From NCBI GenBank assembly GCA_013265495.1, contig MU057719.1, positions 994,001 to 1,058,000 of the forward strand: a DNA stretch of 64,000 nucleotides. Direction: 5' to 3'. A model generated the notes under the pieces. The model was given only the letters and a program-made list of their open reading frames with translations, did no database searches and was not told the origin of the DNA. Origin of the DNA: Vicugna vicugna (Eukaryota). The position numbers and the translations under genes are program-made. This document shows, piece after piece, positions 5,539-49,709 of this stretch. Each line of letters begins with the position of its first letter. Position 1 is the first letter of the stretch.

Positions 5539-6199
5539 ACCAGCTCCACCCTTTTGCGTTGATTGGTTCCTTTTCTTGTTTGCCCCTGTCATTCTTGGAC
5601 CACCTTTGGTCTCCCAGTGGCTGTCAGAAAACAGCCCCTGGTCTCTGCCTGGACAACCTTGGGCTCCAAGTCAGCCTCCTCCCCTCGGGGACTCTGGGCA
5701 AGTGGGGGCTGTTAGTTTGGGGTCATGGCTGCATTCCCATTGCCTAGAAAGTAGTGTCTAGGACGTAGAAGGGCCTAAATGTCTGGTGGATACATGAAAA
5801 GCTGCCGCCATTACTGCACTCCACGTGGCCCGGGCGCCTGTACCTCTGGTTGCACCCTCAGTCGGTGCTGTTGTTACTGGCATCTCAGGGAAGGGCGGCC
5901 ACAGGCTTGGAAGGGGCTGAAGTGTGATGCCCATGGTCACGGAGCTGGGAAGTGAAGTGGCAGAACTCAGGACTCAGCCCAGAAAGAATGCCAGGCCCAA
6001 TGCCTGGTGCCAGGCTCACCGAGAAAGGGTGGGGGTTCGCCAGAGGAGCCTGGACTTCACCCCTGCGCCCTGTCACCGGCGTGCTTATCTCCTTCCCATG
6101 AGGGAGATCATCGCCCAGTGTATGGAGATGGCAAGCCACGATCCGCCACACCTACACTCGCCCGGCTTATCAGCAGTTTCCACTGAAACGGTGCAGACA

Positions 6200-6900
6200 C
6201 GTGGGCTTTCTTCGCCGCCTGTATCCCAGGGCGTAGAACCCGAGGCGCGCAGTCCTTTCCGAACGAACGCGGGCTCGCCAGCTTCCACCTGGGGTCTGAG
6301 CCCCCGAGGACTGAATTCCTGCCGGCCTGTTCTGTCGCCTTCCTGGGTACTGAACGCCTACTGCGCACCAGGCGCTGCGTCGGGGCCGCGCCCAGCCCCT
6401 ACCCGCGGCCCACAAGGCTTTGCGCCCCGCCCCGCGCGCCTCTTCCGGTGGAGCCAGGCCTGGCTAATCGAGCGCCGCGCGCCGGCGGCTCGGCATTCGG
6501 CCGGAGGCGCCTGCCCACGCGGTAGTTTCCGGTGAGCTCAGTCGGGTGGGTGAGAATCGCGCAAGTTGGGGCTGGTGTGTGTGTCGAGGGGCGGCCGGTG
6601 CGGGCATCGGACCCCACACCCCGACCCTCCTTCCCCGGAGTAGGACCCCGAGCGAGCCCCGCCCGACCCCCGAGGCTTCGGCCATGGCTTCTCTGCTCGC
6701 GAAGGATGCGTACTTGCAGAGCCTGGCCAGGAAGATCTGCTCCCAGCCCAGCCCCGATTCGCAGAAGCGCAAGTCGGGTAAAGCTCAGCCAGGGGCCGGG
6801 ATTTGGAGGGCTTCGGAAGGGGGCGCCCCTCCACCCACCAGCGGCGGGAGTCGGTGTCTACCCCACACCGCACCCGAGTAGCCTTCAGGTGGAGTAGACA
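6200..6900 (+). promoter_or_regulatory. SURF6: CpG-island, TATA-less promoter of SURF6
   Basis: Dense CpG; GC box ccccgccccg at ~6425-6434; ETS-type cttccgg at 6442-6448 and tttccggt at ~6526; overlaps coding exon 1. Confidence 0.8.
6684..6777 (+). CDS. SURF6: SURF6 coding exon 1 (MASLLAKDAYLQSLARKICSQPSPDSQKRKS)
   Basis: Kozak gccATGg at 6684; 94 nt, phase-1 donor gtaaag; N-terminus matches recalled SURF6. Confidence 0.95.
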
Positions 6901-8008
6901 CGTAGATGCGTGAGACAAGCCTGTGAAATACTAGAAGGAAGGATTGTAAGGGATGCTTAAAGGCAGCTTCATTTCCCTTGCTCCTTGGGGGAAGCAGTCT
7001 GGGTGGGGGTGGGGGGGTCGGAGGGATTCAGATGGGCGCCCCCCGGGCAGGAAGCTTGGAGGGGTGACCATGCGGAATGGGTGTTCTGCTGTTAGGGATC
7101 GTGAACAGGCTTGGCCAGCTCTCCACAATGGATGGAGGTGATGAGCGATGATGAAAAAAAATTTCAGCGCATTACTATGGGCCTGGTGCTGTATGGGGAG
7201 AAAGAAGAAGATGGCTCTTGCCAGTGGGGGTCTACATGGCAGGGGTGACAAGGCCACCCTCAGGAAGCAGATACACAAAACAGATGAAACAGACAAAAAC
7301 TGGCCTGCAGGGAGCTGGGGATTGTAAAGTACTGCCTGGGTCCACACGAGGGAGAGAGCAGCAGGGCCTGGCACGGTACCACCAGAGAACAAAAACGACT
7401 TTTTCTCTTTATATAAGGAAAATATAGTCGTTACAGAAATTAAGTGAATTTTCTCACCACTCAGTAATAAGTTAGATCTGTGTCTTTCTGGTCTTTTTTT
7501 TTTTTTTGAGTATTTCTCACTTCCTGAAACAATTCTCTTCCTACTTTCTGCATTCATTTTTTTCCTTTTAGATTGTAAACATTTTCTCCACCTATTAAAA
7601 TGAAAGCCTGTGTCATTATTTTTGATGGCTACATTGTAGTTTGTTGTATGGCAGTGCCATAATTGTCCCTGTAGATTTAGGGTTTAAGAAATTTAGGTTT
7701 TCCTTGTTTTTCACTTAAACAATGTTATGATGAGCATCCTTGAGGCCAAATCTTTGTGCATATCCAGAATGAATTCTCAGCAAGCAGACTGCTGGGTCAG
7801 CATGTGGATGTTTTCAGGGTTTGATAAGTGTGGCCAGTTTGCCCTCTAGGAAGTTTGTGGTTCTGAGCTCAGTGGATAAGGGTCTCCATATCCTCCATCC
7901 TGATTGGCTCTGGCATCCTTCTAGCACCAAAGCCTTTACAACACCTTCCTACCTATTGAATGGATCACAGATATTGGGATGGCAGCCCTTTCTCATTTTG
8001 TGTTTCAG

Positions 8009-8203
8009 CTGGCAAAGCTCGAGTCTCAGAAGCTGGTGGGCCCCCAAAGAAGAAGAGGAAGAAAGCCCAGAAGAAATCCCGGGAGCGGGATGAGAAGGCT
8101 GCAGAGCCCAAGGTTCACGCCCCTGCAGAGAAGCCTCAGGCCAGGAAGCCTGCGGCAGCCCTGGAGGAGGAAGAGGCCCCCAGCTCCCCCAGGGCACCTG
8201 CCG
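8009..8203 (+). CDS. SURF6: SURF6 coding exon 2 (AGKARVSEAGGPPKKKRKKAQKK...RAPA)
   Basis: tgtttcag acceptor and gtgagg donor, 195 nt, phase 1/1; contains the basic NLS-like PPKKKRKK. Confidence 0.92.
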
Positions 8204-8790
8204 GTGAGGGTCGGGTAGGGCCGACTGGGATCTAGGATCTAAGCAAATGTGGCCCTTCCTCTCTGGCCATGACAGCACCCTCAGGCACACTGAGACAGCA
8301 TGAGACTTCCCGAAGGATGGGTTTTCAGAGGTTACATCACAGGGGCTCTGTGCGTGGACGGGATTCCACAAGTGCACAGTAGTGCCAAGCCACATAGTAA
8401 CTGGGATGAAGAGGGGCAGGCCCGTGTTCCACAGAGCACCAGGAGTAGCTTGGCTTGACTGCTCTCAGGTCTCTGAAATGGTGTCCTGAGAGCTGCCTTG
8501 GGGGGCAAGGGGGCAGGGTGGGCGGCTGCAGAAGTTGGGAGGAATGGGAGATGGGTTTGGCTTGCACTGTGGGAAGAGTTTTTTCATACCACATGAGGAT
8601 GTCCTGGGGATGTCAATCCAGGTTGAAGAGGTGGAGTAGAATTACTGGAAATGTCCTGCAGATCCATGAGTGGCCACTGGGGGGGGTTGTCCGTGCACGG
8701 AGACTGGGGCTTTGAAGCTGGGCCCCAGGGGAGGACACAGAAAGGTCCGGGAGGGGGGCTTCTTTCAGTCTCCCGACCCTTCCTTTGCAG

Positions 8791-8879
8791 ATGGCCCAGC
8801 CAAAGAGCCTGAGTCTTTATTCGCCTTGGACGTTCTGCGGCAGCGCCTGCGCGAGAAGATACAGGAGGCCCGCGGCCAG
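8791..8879 (+). CDS. SURF6: SURF6 coding exon 3 (DGPAKEPESLFALDVLRQRLREKIQEARGQ)
   Basis: tcctttgcag acceptor and gtgggt donor, 89 nt, phase 1/0; conserved LRQRLxEKIQEARGQ motif. Confidence 0.95.
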
Positions 8880-9896
8880 GTGGGTGGGGAGACCTCCCTG
8901 GGTGCTGCCTGCAGGAGGAGACGCTGGGCTCCCTCTGAGGTCGGCTCCCAGCCCCGCCAGCCTTCGTGGGCCTGGTGGGCATTTCAGTGGAATGTGGGGC
9001 TGACAGGAGGGCCTCAGCCCTGTTCCTGCCCCTCCAGCGGGTCCTGCCAGGACCGCCGCAGCTCCATTCTGTGAGACATCAGGTGTGGTTCTCATCACCT
9101 TGGGGCTCTGGGTCCCCAGGGCCACCCGTCTTCAGCTGGCTCTGCTGTCCATGGCCTTGGAGGGAGACTCAGCTTCTTCTCTGGGGAAGCTGCGTCTGCT
9201 GAGACACCCACACCGGGCGGCCCTTCCTACAGGTTTTTCATCTAAATGTCACGACGGCCCTAGGAGGTAGGCGAGGGCTTGAGGCAAGGTGACCTCCCCC
9301 AAGTGACAGCCATGGGAGGCTCGGGCACCTGAGTCTACCTCAGCGCTTTCTGCTGAACGGCCTCACTTCCTTCCTTCTGCTGAACAGCCACCCCCTTCCG
9401 CGGGGAGCTGCCCCAGGCCTCTTGCTGTGTGGGAACAGTCCACAGCTGCTTTCTGCCCTGTCCTGGGACAGGCCCGAGGGCCAGTTTCTGAGAGGTGACC
9501 CCGGCTCTGGGCCCTGCTGTCCTGCAGAGGCCCAGGGCCCTCCTGTCTGCCTGGCTGAGCTCAGGACAGTGCCCTGGTCTGCACCGAAACCGGGGCGTTC
9601 CGATCCACTGCCAAGATCTGGATGGTGGCGTTGGCCCAGCCCCCTGCTCTTCTCTCGGAAATGACCGAGGACACGCCCCTTCTTGGGTCACTGGGGAGGT
9701 TTAGCGGCCCCGTGTTTGTGACCTGCCCTGGTGTGGGGCAGGTGCCTGGAAACCGCAGGCGGTTCTCGCGGGGTCCCCTTGTGTCTTTCGGGTGCGTTTT
9801 GGGTGCTCGGGCATCTCCGAGTGGAACGCTTGTCCTGCCAGACGGGGGGCCCGAGGTTGGGAGAACCTTAGGAGCCAGCGCCCGCTTTCCCCCCAG

Positions 9897-10081
9897 GGCG
9901 GCGCCGAGGAGCTGTCTGCCGCCGCTTTGGAGAAACGACGACGGAGGAAGCAGGAGCGGGACCGGAAGAAGAGGAAGCGCAAGGAGCTGAGAGCGAAGGA
10001 GAAGGCGGCCACGGCCCCGGCGGCGGCGGCGGCGGAGGAGGCCGCCGAGGAGCCCGGCGAGGAGGAGGCGGCGCAGTGTGA
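9897..10081 (+). CDS. SURF6: SURF6 exon-4-derived segment (GGAEELSAAALEKRRRRKQERDRKKRKRKELRAKEKA...). No 3' donor is seen, and this frame runs on to TGA at 10134-10136
   Basis: ccccag acceptor at 9891-9896, in frame with exon 3; the peptide matches SURF6. The 3' boundary is approximate. Confidence 0.85.
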
Positions 10082-10549
10082 GGGGCAGAGCCCGCCGGCG
10101 AGGCGGGGCGCCGCAAGGAGAAGAGGCGGAAGCTGAAGGGGAACCTGACGCCGCTGACGGGCAGGAACTACCGGCAGCTGCTGGAGCGCCTGCGGGCGCG
10201 GCGGGCCCGGCTGGAGGAGCTGCGGGAGCGGGACGCGGGCAGGGCGCGGGAGCTCGAGGCCAGGATGCGGTGGACCAACCTGCTGTACAAGGCGGAGGGC
10301 GTGCGCATCCGCGACGACGAGCAGCGGCTGCAGGACGCCCTGCGGCGCAAGGAGCGGCGGCGCGCGCGGCGCAGGCGCACATGGGAGAAGCGCACGGCGC
10401 ACGTGGTGGAGCAGATGCAGCAGCGGCAGGACCGGCGGCGGCAGAACCTGCGCAGGAAGAAGGCGGCCAAGGCGGAGCGGCGCCTGGAGAAGGCCCGCAA
10501 GAAGGGCCGGATCCTGCCCCAGGACCTGGAGCGGGCCGGCCTGGCGTGA
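10082..10549 (+). CDS. SURF6: SURF6 exon-5-derived C-terminal domain (EPAGEAGRRKEKRRKLKGNLTPLTGRNYRQLLERL...KKGRILPQDLERAGLA-stop), out of frame with the preceding segment in this sequence
   Basis: Frame open from 10082 to TGA 10547-10549; hallmark motifs KGNLTPLTGRNY, WTNLLYKAEGV and ARKKGRI. Confidence 0.88.
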   Translation, partial: GAEPAGEAGRRKEKRRKLKGNLTPLTGRNYRQLLERLRARRARLEELRERDAGRARELEARMRWTNLLYKAEGVRIRDDEQRLQDALRRKERRRARRRRTWEKRTAHVVEQMQQRQDRRRQNLRRKKAAKAERRLEKARKKGRILPQDLERAGLA

Positions 10550-11299
10550 GGGCCGTGGCCTCGCCGTCCGACCCCCACCCCGACCCGAGCAGGCGCGGGC
10601 CCCTGGCGGCAAATGGACCCTGGCCGCGCGCCCCTCGCCGACTTGGCGGGAGGGTTCAGGCGGGCGGGCGAAAGAGACTTCGGGCCCAGGGAAGGGGTGG
10701 CCAGGTCTGGGCTCCAGCTTCTTGTGAGGCCAGAGTGCTCCCTGGAAGTTGCTGGTGTGGGGCAGGGAGCAGTGAGGAGGGAGTGGGCGTCGGGGGCGTG
10801 GGGCTCTTCATTGGCCCCCTCCTCCTCTCCCGTGCTCAGAGGAGCAGGAACTCAGTGGCCCTTGTGACTGCCGAATCAGTCCAGAACTCCCTTGGAAGGG
10901 ACGAAAATCGGCCCCTGTAACCGGAGCTGCAGGTGGAATTGACGGGGTCAGGTAACTGGGGTCTGGATATAAATGATGCCAAATTTGTAAAAGGAGTAAA
11001 AATGAGAGTTTAAACGAAACACGCACATTTCAAGTCCTAAAATAACCACTAAAAGATGGAAACGGTGTTACTAACCTAGGAGGAAGGAAAATGAAGTGGG
11101 GTGGGTGATACCACTCTGGGAGGCAGCAGGAGAGAGGGAAAGAGGAAAACCTGGAACCAAGCAAGGTGGATGGAAGAGCCAGAGTAAGGGGGGGAGTCGG
11201 GTCCAAGCCCCCAGGCAGCTAGAATGAGTGCCCATCAACAAAATTCGGATGAATTTTATGGTATGTGGATTGTATTTAAGTGAAACTATTAATAATTCT

Positions 11300-11760
11300 T
11301 TTGACTGAACTCCAGTTAAGAAACAGTTGGTAACCAGAAGAAAGCTGGTGTGGCTGTAGTATTAGATGAAGTCGACATTAACGTAAAAAAATCCCTAAAG
11401 AGAAAGAACGTGACCACAAACTGAAGAGGGGCCCCGGTCACCTGGAAGGGCTGAACAGCTGCAGCAGGAGCACAGCCGCAGGGAGAAACCTGTTCACACA
11501 CCAGCGGGGGCGTCTGCCAGGTCTGAGGAACTGATAGACCAAGCGGACAAAGTCAGGTGGACACGAAGGACTTGAGTGGTAGCGTTTACAGGCTGCTCTG
11601 ATGGACGCACACTGAACAGTGTATGAGAAGACGACTGTACTTAGAGCACACCTGGCGTAGTGGTCCCTGACCGCGCGTTGGGCTGTGAGGCGCGTCTCAG
11701 ATGTCAGAGAATCGGCCTCATACAAAGACTGATAGCTAGCCAAGGGACAACTTAAAGCCT
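11300..11760 (+). mobile_element. Degraded LINE-1 ORF2 (endonuclease-region) fragment
   Basis: aaccagaagaaagctggtgtggctgtagtattagatgaagtcgac resembles L1 EN-coding sequence; no intact ORF. Confidence 0.5.
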
Positions 11761-14131
11761 TGAGGTGCTTGTTAAAGTTTAATGTTTGGAAGATGAGGAC
11801 TCTTCTCTTCTAAATTGCTCCTTCCCTTCTAAATTACCTGTGAGTCCAAGTGTAGCCCCCAGTGGGTGTGTAGTCCCCAGTATAAGCCCTGGTGGGGCAT
11901 CCTTAGGACTGAAAGACGAGTGGTATTTGTGGGAGACAGTCAAGGCAGTGCAAAAAGCAACTTTACAGCCTTAAAGGTGTGCTTAGGTGTGTTTACTCTT
12001 GGAGATGTATCTGAGGAATGCCTATGTGCCGCACAGTTTTCTGCCATCTCGCTTGACCTGGACCCTCGTGCCACGGCTCGTTGTCCCACTCCCTCTGTGT
12101 CCAGTAGGTCCACCCGAGTTATTTTTCACACGTTACAGTCAGGAGAGCTGTGAGGGTATAAGCCCCTGTGGAAATGGCAGGAACATCTCAAAAAGCCTGG
12201 CGGGCGGGTATCACTAGGTGCTCCCCTGAAGACAGGAGGCAGGGAGGCTCGCCCCTCCAGCTTGGAGTGCTGCTGTGCCCCGCCCCCGCCACTTCGTGGA
12301 GCTGATGTGTGGGGAGAGCAGATGGTGCACTTTTGTGGCAGGTGGCAGCAGGAGCACCCCATTTCTAGAAGCAGCAGTGGGCAGTAGGCGATACAGGGAA
12401 GAAATGCTGGGGAAATAAGGAGACGCCTGCATCTGGTCAGCCGTGGTGGGAGCTGGAGCCTAACCAACTCCAAGGGTAAAATGCCCCATCCTCCCCTCGC
12501 AGCCTCCCGGGGCTTGGCCACTCACACCCCTCCCTGGCCTAGGGCTGGGGGCTGATGCTGTGCAGAAGCAAGGATGGAGCATGTGATGGGTTTCAGTGGC
12601 AACGGAGGCATCTCACGTCCAGGGCGATAGTGGACACCGGAATACAGATGACAGGGAAGAAAAGGTTAGGAACATCACAGAATGCGTCTAGGGGCCGGTT
12701 CACAGCCCCTGGGTGTTGTGCGCCTCAGGTGCAGAAAACGTGATTCAGAGACCTCGGAGAGCACTTCCAGTCACCTACTGTCGGGAAGGTCTTCAGAACC
12801 AAATGGCAGGAGTGTCCAGGTCAGACAGTCCACCTCCTGCTGTCCAGTGAGTTGGACGGAAGTAGCCCTAACCAGGACGCATGGTCAGGAACGGGGGGTT
12901 CCAACAGTCCTGCAAGGCCAGGGTAGGCCTTACCGCTGGCCCCTCTGCGTGAGGCTGGGAAGAGGCTCCAGGACTTAAACTAATACAGGGTTAGAGATTC
13001 AGCAAGAGGCTCCGAACAGAAGCCTCTGTTCACCACAGCTGGTGTGGAGGTGCAGAGGGGCAGAGAGAGAGGACAGAGAGCTGTGACCCCAGGCCCTCAG
13101 CTCACTGCACTAGCCTGACCATTGCGGGAACCTTGCACACATGGCCCCGTGGAAGTGAGAGGTCACGGTGCGTGCGCTGCCGCCCTCAGGCCTCGGCATC
13201 TGCGGCATCTGCGCTGGGCCGGGGCGTGGTTCTACGGCTGACTCCCGGGGCCCTCCATGCAGCCTGCAGAGGGGAGCCGCCGCGGCGCTCTCCCACGATG
13301 TCTGTGCGCAGCTGCGGTGCTGTCCTCAGCAGCCCGGCAAAGGATAGGGCTTCCTTGCCCTCCCCGGACCACCTGCAGGATGGATGCGCAGGTAACAAGC
13401 TTACCTCTCTCCTGAGGTTTCTTACATCTGTGTTGTTCCAAGGGATTTCTGGAAGACTCACTTACCTTCGTGTGGGCCACTGTGGGTTCCCGGGTTTGGT
13501 TGAGCGACACAGTGAATTCTCCTCAGTCCCCCAGCGAGCCCACTGAGTCTGGACTTCCTGTGGAGCTCTGTCTGTGCACCCCTCCTTCCCTGGCCAAGCA
13601 TGTCTAGAATCAGTTCCCACGTATTTCCCTGACTTTTTTTTTTTTAAATATAGATCAGTAAATATTTGTTCGTTCAGTCAGACCTTCTGACTTTCACTTT
13701 GTAGTCGGCCACCTGGGACCTGCTGAGACCTGACTCACTGCTGCAGAGGCAGGTGAGACAGGAGACTGGCTTGTCCCTGAGAGGTACTTGCTCAGATAAG
13801 AGTCTTCAATCAAGGACAAATAGCCTTATCAGTCGGGGGGGAGGGGCTGGTTTCTCAAAGTGGACCTTGGTGAGGTTGGATATTCAAGGTACCTGAGCCA
13901 GCCAAGGGCACCCAATTATCCCCATTTCAGTCCTGAGGACCCCACTCTGCCGATCGGCGCTTTAGGTTTCCTACTCATGACAGGTCATGTTGTGTTGCGT
14001 TAACAAAAGTACCTTTTAATAATTAAAACCAGTGGTTTGAAACCAGATTGATCACTGGATTTGTCTTAACTAGGAATAGAGGAAAACTTCCTCAACCGGA
14101 TAAAGAATGTTTACCTAAAACCTACAGATAA

Positions 14132-47330: not shown

Positions 47331-49018
47331 GAGTTCACTGTGTGTTTACAGATTTTCTCTCTTCTAGGTAAAATGCACATACAATGAAGTGAACATACTG
47401 TCATTGCGTTCTTGCCGAATGTTGACAAATACACGTAACTGTGTAACCAAAATCCTCTTCTACTCATATAGCATTGCCATCATCCCTGAAAGTTCCCTCA
47501 TGCCCCTTCCCAGTCAACACCCATTGCTGCTTTCTCACTGGCAATGCCTGTTCTGATTTATATCTGCTATAAGATTATTTTTGCCTGCTGCAATTATAAA
47601 GTATGTGCTCTTTTCTGTTGCCTTTTCCAACTAAGAATAATTATTTTCCGATTTATCCACGATTTTGAATGGCTCAGTAGCTCTGTCCTCTTTGCTGGTG
47701 AGCAGTATTTAATCACATGTATTTATTATAGTTGGTTTATTAATACTCCTTTGGATGGACACCTGGGGTGTTTCCAGGTTTTGTCTATTATGAGTTAGTA
47801 TTAATGTCATTGGGTAAATCCTTTGTGGACACTGGGTTTAACTGAACATCTAGGAGCAGAAATGTTCAGTCCTAGGTTACATATGTGTTTAGTTTTGTAA
47901 AAAATTCCAGGCACTTCTCCAAATTGACTGTAGCATTTTATGTCCCCACCCACAACACACAGAAATTCTGGCTGCTCGACATGCTTACCAGCATTTGATG
48001 ACATGATTTGCCAAAAAGTTTTATACCTGAATCTTTGTAGATGCTTGTGAGTAGGTCTGTTGGGTAGATTCCTGGAAGTGGAATTGGGGGAAGGATATCC
48101 ACATGTAAAATCTTGATATATTTTTTCATATGCCCTCTGGAAGGATTAAAAAAATTGATCTTTTCATTAGTGGCATATGAGTGTATTTGTCTCCTCTTAT
48201 CCTCAACCATATTGAATTATTCACTTATTCATTTGTTCAAAAGATCTTTACTAAACACCAGGGTATTCCAGGAGCCACCCTGCCCAGAACAGAGGAAGGA
48301 GGAGAGACAGGAAGGAGACAAGGTCAGGGCAGGTCTTGTAGGACCTGGTAGACCACTGAGGGCCATGGATTGCTTTTTTTTTTAAAAAGACAGTAAGTCT
48401 CTGGAGCATCCTGAGCTGGGAGATATCCATCATATGGGTATTATCTGTCCTTTGAACCATTGGCAACCTTGTTGATTAATAAAATGTCTTATGGTTGAAA
48501 ATATTTGCTCAACCCCAAGCAATCCGAATCTCTCCTCTTACTATCCAGTCAGGGTACCTTGTCTTTAGCTAGTGGAATGGCAATAATTTTTATTTTTATT
48601 TTTTGATTTTTAATTGTGGTAAAATGCACATAACAAAATCAACCATCTTGCCTATTTTTAAGTATACTATTCAGTAGTGTTGGGTATTCACGTTGTTGTA
48701 CAGCCATCACCACTGTCCATCGCCAGAACTGTTCTCATCTTGCGAAACTGAATGTCTGTGCCCCCTAAGCAATAGCTCCCCTCCCCCTCCCCCAGTCTCT
48801 GGCAACGGCCGTCCTACTTTCTGTCTCTATGAATGTGCCTATTCTAGGCACTTCGTGTAAGTGGGATCACATAGTACCTGCCTTTTTGTGATTGGCTTGT
48901 TTCACTTGGCGGAATGTCCTCAAGGTGTGCCTAAGGCCTTAAGAACTAAGCCTATTCTTTTGCCGCTGCTTTGGTCCTAAGTAACTGCCTCTCGTTCCGG
49001 GGTGCTTACTGGTTTCAG

Positions 49019-49709
49019 ATACACGGTCTTCCTGCAGCTGTTCCTGGAGACGGCGGAGAAGTACTTCATGGTGGGACACAAGGTCAACTACTACGTCTTC
49101 ACTGACCGGCCGGCGGATGTGCCCCAGGTCCCACTGCGGCAGGGGAGGCAGGTGGTGGTCCTCGAGGTCCGAAACTACAGGCGCTGGCAGGACGTATGCA
49201 TGCACCGCATGGAGATGCTCAGCAACTTCTCTCGGCAGCGCTTCCTCCACGAGGTCGACTACCTCGTGTGCGCGGACGTGGACATGAAGTTCAGCGACCG
49301 CGTGGGCGTGGAGATCCTGGCCCCGCTCTTCGGGACCCTCCACCCTGGTTTCTACGCAGCAGATCGCGGGTCCTTCACCTACGAACGCCGCGCGTTGTCT
49401 CAGGCTTACATTCCGAGGGATGAGGGTGATTTTTACTATGCAGGAGGCTTTTTCGGGGGGTCGGTCCTTGAAGTCCACCGGCTCACCGCGGCCTGTCACC
49501 AGGCGATGATGGCCGACTGGGCCCGTGGCCTCGAGGCCGTGTGGCACGATGAGAGCCACCTGAACAGGTACCTGCTCTACCACAAGCCCAGCAAGGTGCT
49601 GTCCCCGGAGTACCTGTGGGACGAGCGGATGCTGCGGAGGCCGCCTTACCTGCGGAAGCTGCGGTACGTGGCGGTGCCCAAGAACCACGCACAGATTCGG
49701 AACCGGTGA
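49019..49709 (+). CDS. ABO: ABO-family exon 7, GT6 catalytic domain ([20 protein letters not shown]...DVD...LHPGFY...[11 protein letters not shown]...WHDESHLN...[15 protein letters not shown])
   Basis: ggtttcag acceptor; 691 nt to TGA with no interruption; DXD motif, the Glu303 equivalent and the C-terminal Lys/Arg are intact; position after SURF6 is syntenic with human ABO. Confidence 0.97.

Follow-up and report, generated by a model that had tools for sequence, protein, structure and literature searches.

SURF6 exons 4 and 5 fused out of frame at a GC peak in a camelid contig: a probable assembly artefact

SURF6 gives its name to the SURF6/Rrp14 family (PF04935) of nucleolar pre-rRNA processing factors, whose depletion is described as lethal in yeast (PMC10348582). 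As a camelid reference for this family we used the alpaca SURF6 RefSeq protein (P0122; XP_072816567.1; 353 aa), in which Pfam places PF04935 at residues 135-333 (E 1.5e-38). The gene compared with it here lies in a 64-kb stretch of camelid DNA, referred to below as the window; P0122 possibly comes from a sister species of the animal from which the window was obtained.

Vertebrate assemblies are documented to contain false indels, to miss exons and to lose genes falsely where exons are GC-rich (Kim et al. 2022, PMC9516821). The SURF6 gene of the window resembles the false gene losses of that study in combining a frameshift with a missing part of an exon at extreme GC, a defect that improved assemblies of this species or a sister species do not show. 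However, that study stresses 5′ exons and confirmed its errors by read mapping, whereas the defect in the window affects the last exon junction and is judged from sequence comparison.

A SURF6 orthologue divided between two reading frames

The window carries, on its + strand, the SURF6 gene of a llama/alpaca-type camelid, of the four-intron type. Exon boundaries were set by a script that sought GT-AG pairs reproducing residues 1-165 of P0122 and returned a single solution. Exon 1 (CDS 6684..6777, with the ATG at 6684 and a GT donor after it) equals residues 1-31 of P0122 exactly in tblastn, exon 2 (8009..8203, with AG and GT boundaries from the script) matches residues 31-96 at 66 of 66 positions, and exon 3 (8791..8879, bounded in the same way) equals residues ~96-126 (ADGPAKEPES...EARGQ). 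Behind an acceptor of the form ccccccag/G at 9896/9897, the part of exon 4 that is present extends from 9897 to 10076 and matches residues 126-185 at 58 of 61 positions, its last codon (10074-10076) being the Gln that corresponds to Q185. The CDS of exon 5 (10082..10549) runs from Gly199 to the stop in a frame that differs from that of exon 4; its 155 open codons (10082-10546) match residues 199-353 at 155 of 155 positions and are followed by the stop at 10547-10549. Introns 1-3 are all present with GT-AG ends, and exons 1-3 together with the last 155 codons are 100% identical to P0122 (tblastn). The coding part of exon 5 (10082-10546) is, moreover, 99% identical to Camelus ferus SURF6, and the C. 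ferus and C. dromedarius proteins (P0001 and P0121) count with P0122 among the closest known sequences.

By identity and synteny, the gene is the SURF6 orthologue. Its C-terminal domain matches SURF6 proteins, and it occupies a genomic, non-retrocopy locus with introns 1-3 and with conserved neighbours, namely MED22 exons and an ABO-like exon. A single unbroken reading frame through the domain was not found, the frame switching at 10077-10081. The window holds the SURF6 member of the SURF6/Rrp14 family, but, as assembled, its domain is divided between two frames, and the exon-4-frame product (window 9897-10133) has no Pfam match. A first-pass annotation of the same DNA had placed the C-terminal domain in another frame, bounded upstream by the TGA at 10079-10081 and open for 155 codons, and this description proved correct (10082-10546).

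DNA and protein searches of the assembly found no second SURF6 copy, whether haplotig or retrocopy. The DNA search returned the SURF6 locus itself and one 86-nt match elsewhere at 77% identity, while the protein search returned five exon matches only, all of them at the SURF6 locus. A processed pseudogene, or loss of the intron by retro-conversion, was considered and rejected: a precise removal of the intron would have spared the coding sequence, whereas here 39 nt of CDS gave way to 5 nt, and introns 1-3 are still in place.

The exon 4/5 junction in the window and in other mammals

In the window, exon 4 runs directly into exon-5 sequence without an intervening intron. Joining exons 1-3 to 9897-10136 yields a predicted product of 205 aa that ends at a premature TGA in the exon-4 frame (10134..10136, +), in agreement with the first-pass annotation, which had described an exon-4 frame entering exon-5 sequence and closing at this stop after about 205 aa. 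At the junction, the bases TGTGA (10077..10081, +) stand in place of the expected intron and of residues 186-198 of P0122 (APPGLLFSKVEVC; 13 residues, 39 nt). With 5 nt in place of 39, the net loss of coding sequence is 34 nt, and therefore the frame changes between exon 4 and exon 5, with the TGA at 10079-10081 forming the upstream limit of the exon-5 frame. The TGT at the junction may represent the codon of Cys198, in which case two superfluous bases come after it, or else a splice donor may have left GTGAGG (10078-10083) as its remnant. That the end of exon 4, the intron and the start of exon 5 are missing, as had also been proposed, is supported by the absence of residues 186-198 and with the lack of room for an intron.

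The break falls in a stretch of extreme base composition. The GC content reaches 83% at 10000-10099, the highest of the eight 100-nt intervals between 9800 and 10599; taken in steps of 200 nt from 6000 to 12000, it peaks at 10000-10199 (0.775). Just upstream of the break, Tandem Repeats Finder reports (CGG)6 together with 2.6 copies of a 12-nt GAGGAGGCCGCC repeat (10018..10065, +), the former at 10018-10035 and the latter at 10035-10065; the junction itself lies at 10076/10077. Among mammals, conservation of the protein is lowest in the Ala/Glu-rich segment that precedes the break (alignment A1), and the three differences between exon 4 and P0122 (one extra Ala, one A->E and one R->G) all occur within ~60 nt upstream of the break.

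Among other mammals, the motif L[LIM]F[NS]K-[VM]EV is kept in 24 of the 24 aligned full-length orthologues, including those of alpaca and two camels (alignment A1). The string GLIFNK/VEVSEDEPA, which the first-pass annotation had given for human SURF6 at this junction, is indeed present in the database proteins P0075 and P0106. A further protein, P0130, has a short intron retained between ...LLFNK and VEV..., where 102 nt of additional sequence add 34 codons in frame, and its exon-4 part is identical to the minke-whale protein P0021 (alignment A1). In addition, five genomic-type fragments (P0129, P0132, P0133, P0139 and P0148) have an unrelated start and match the family from VEV exactly. The intron position is supported because of the extra codons of P0130 and the five fragments that join at VEV, and, as read from these proteins, two exons do meet at the FNK/VEV position in other mammals. 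In the window there is no space for the intron that those mammals have between F[NS]K and VEV, and the total loss is therefore probably ~135 nt, which would represent the 34 nt of CDS and an intron of ~100 nt, a size taken from the whale-like sequence.

No usable intron separates the two frames, as the first-pass annotation had also stated. Only three GT dinucleotides occur between 9897 and 10133 (9914, 10076 and 10078). All 13 GT-AG pairs that restore the frame were rejected, either for removing at least 15 conserved codons or for being 5 nt long; the residues lost in such pairs include the invariant RR..R and the nearly invariant KGNLTPLTG block. A wider listing that admits GC and AT donors holds 522 pairs and is uninformative in DNA of 77% GC.

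The same Ala/Glu-rich, GC-rich stretch is defective in three older camelid RefSeq models, which derive from other assemblies. Alpaca P0123 (200 aa) departs from the gene after ...AAAAEEA and skips the whole exon-5 CDS; its last 26 residues match the 3′UTR of the window at ~10840-10917 in 25 of 26 positions, with one S/P difference (by comparison with the window's ORF listing), so that the window differs from the assembly behind the older alpaca model. Bactrian camel P0124 (191 aa) ends abruptly after ...APAAAA, while dromedary P0125 (216 aa) has small frameshifts, keeps LFSKVEVC and ends in ...AARRRGGS, a wrong-frame tail (...RRRGGS) common to it and the window. Although the same stretch is broken in these three models and in the window, the details of the errors differ, and the window keeps exon 5 from Gly199 on. 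The newer models are intact (alpaca P0122, 353 aa; dromedary P0121, 358 aa), and the gene has the full segment in P0122, P0001 and P0121, i.e. in assemblies of the same or a sister species. Compared with P0122, the window is identical in exons 1-3 and in the last 155 residues, and is without residues 186-198.

Searches of the protein collection yielded no read-derived SURF6 fragments of camelids: the camelid entries that they returned come from NCBI/UniRef, as do all 10 members of the two Camelus clusters. Apart from these two clusters, no match exceeded 86% identity among the best 120 of the 227 matches of the C-terminal query to longer proteins (8000 candidates), among its 44 matches to near-length proteins, or among the 39 matches of P0122 residues 130-240 to shorter proteins. 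No metagenome contig matched a 36-nt exon-4 pattern exactly, and a protein-alignment scan of such contigs matched 597 pattern stretches, with 0 confirmed. A search of sequencing runs returned 24, among which 14 DNA-like runs hold 0.81-0.92 of 169 sampled words, shares that do not resolve the junction, and six RNA or guessed-RNA runs hold 0.39-0.43 of the 169 sampled words, shares that are silent on the junction; two of the four same-sample runs hold 0.26 and 0.33 of the words, and the other two next to none. Literature searches found no paper on the gene structure of SURF6 when directed at its exon structure, and nothing relevant when directed at gaps in alpaca assemblies.

Competing explanations of the break

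Comparison with related sequences makes it likely that the break is a local assembly artefact and not a feature of the animal's gene. This explanation is favoured because the gene is intact outside the break (exons 1-3, 155 C-terminal codons and three introns with GT-AG ends), because the missing motif is present in all 24 full-length mammalian orthologues, because the break sits in the GC peak (83% at 10000-10099), because three older camelid models fail at the same place while newer versions are intact, and because all three small differences from P0122 are confined to the ~60 nt upstream of the break. It is favoured further because errors in GC-rich coding sequence are a known class (PMC9516821). 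The loss would have taken out the last part of exon 4, the initial codons of exon 5 and, between them, a short GC-rich intron 4, and would have left a few incorrect bases at the junction; it would probably have taken place at consensus building or polishing. If so, the animal most likely has a normal SURF6 gene whose protein, at ~353 aa, resembles that of the alpaca RefSeq entry; the properly spliced exon 4-exon 5 product would encode ...EEEAAQAPPGLLFSKVEVCGAEPA..., and the reads of this animal should contain the missing sequence.

The first-pass annotation had favoured an assembly collapse in the context of GCG repeats. The assembly fault is the best supported reading and a quite probable one, given the GC peak, the intact newer models and the failures at the same site. 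A simple collapse of the GCG repeats, by contrast, is not supported: the repeats end at 10065, the junction lies at 10076/10077, and TGTGA is not what a clean repeat collapse leaves behind.

Several observations nevertheless count against an artefact. No N occurs in the 64-kb window, nor in 60 kb sampled at six other places of the 1.07-Mb contig, and a contig this free of gaps suggests a long-read assembly. Errors in long-read assemblies are usually indels of 1-2 nt, and losses of ~135 nt would be unusual there. The three nearby differences from P0122, lying in a variable segment, may be natural variation, P0122 itself may belong to a sister species, and the few odd bases at the junction would also fit a real deletion repaired by end joining. 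In a rival reading, the window records a real germline deletion allele, probably heterozygous, in which the exon-4 donor, intron 4 and the exon-5 acceptor were removed and the exons fused out of frame. The sequence as assembled states exactly such a fusion; the downstream frame is untouched (155/155), as would be expected of a very young allele, and the contig is otherwise clean, with the neighbouring MED22 exons and ABO-like exon intact. The Pfam SURF6 domain, which spans residues 135-333 of P0122, would be kept only to residue 185, and its loss from the exon-4-frame product as a Pfam match would fit a truncating allele. We nonetheless consider such an allele improbable. Mouse NIH/3T3 cells reportedly need SURF6 for viability, to go by the title of one paper, and SURF6/Rrp14 is reported as needed for viability in yeast as well (PMC10348582). 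Since the factor is reported to be essential, a real null could exist only in the heterozygous state. A priori, an assembly fault at 83% GC is much more likely than a real deletion that removes exon sequence from any particular essential gene. Three further camelid assemblies are defective at this spot, and the assembly behind the window offers no alternative haplotype copy for comparison.

In its full form, this reading would have one chromosome carry a real ~135 bp deletion, with a transcript that escapes NMD and a 205-aa fragment that lacks three quarters of the Rrp14/SURF6 domain, which we hold to be rather improbable. Escape from NMD, which had been raised in the first-pass annotation, would in principle follow from the position of the stop in the last exon, and would be relevant only if the allele were real. 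In that event, a 205-aa N-terminal fragment with about a quarter of the SURF6 domain would be predicted, and the allele would be a natural heterozygous null, possibly dominant-negative, of a ribosome-biogenesis gene reported to be essential; as a natural truncating variant of a ribosome-assembly factor, it would be of moderate interest.

Alternatively, the change could be fixed in the species, either as a young pseudogene or with an unusual splicing rescue, e.g. from GT 10076 to AG 10164, an in-frame removal of 89 nt. On paper, the 13 GT-AG pairs restore an open frame, but every one of them deletes conserved residues or spans 5 nt, and no further copy of SURF6 could take its place. That a whole species should have lost a gene reported to be essential is implausible, the P0122 protein of the closest relative is intact, and zero changes in 155 downstream codons argue against an old pseudogene; a fixed change is therefore very improbable.

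If the break is an assembly artefact, as we favour, SURF6 will appear as truncated or "low quality" when this assembly is annotated, and comparative screens might wrongly score a loss of SURF6 in this camelid. The site is worth flagging, since four camelid assemblies (the one behind the window and three older ones) failed in the same GC-rich stretch.

Neighbouring genes and overlapping reading frames

Upstream of SURF6, and on the same strand, the window contains MED22 (Surf5) exons at 1417-1533 and 2287-2502 (+; Pfam PF06179, E 4.8e-18). A glycosyltransferase family 6 (ABO-like) exon at 48981-49706 (+) is intact and open over 242 aa, and matches PF03414 (E 2.1e-119) at profile positions 86-313 of 313. 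This arrangement fits the order MED22-SURF6-ABO, which we take to be that of the human genes. The protein collection also includes fused MED22-SURF6 proteins of the read-through type (P0082 and P0106), both with the two Pfam domains. The window ends 14.7 kb short of the end of its contig (1,072,671 nt), in an assembly of 12,405 contigs and 2.03 Gb.

On the opposite strand, SURF6 exons 4-5 are overlapped by two Ala/Pro/Arg-rich ORFs (9561-10807, -; 364 and 368 aa), which look like a side effect of the very high GC content rather than genes. At the other end of the gene, read-through of the exon-1 donor (window 6468-6881, +) gives ...QKRKSGKAQPGAGIWRASEGGAPPP..., which is nearly the sequence with which 'isoform X1' of Camelus ferus (P0002) has its N-terminal part; this isoform therefore looks like a model that retains intron 1 or uses an alternative frame, rather than a separate protein.
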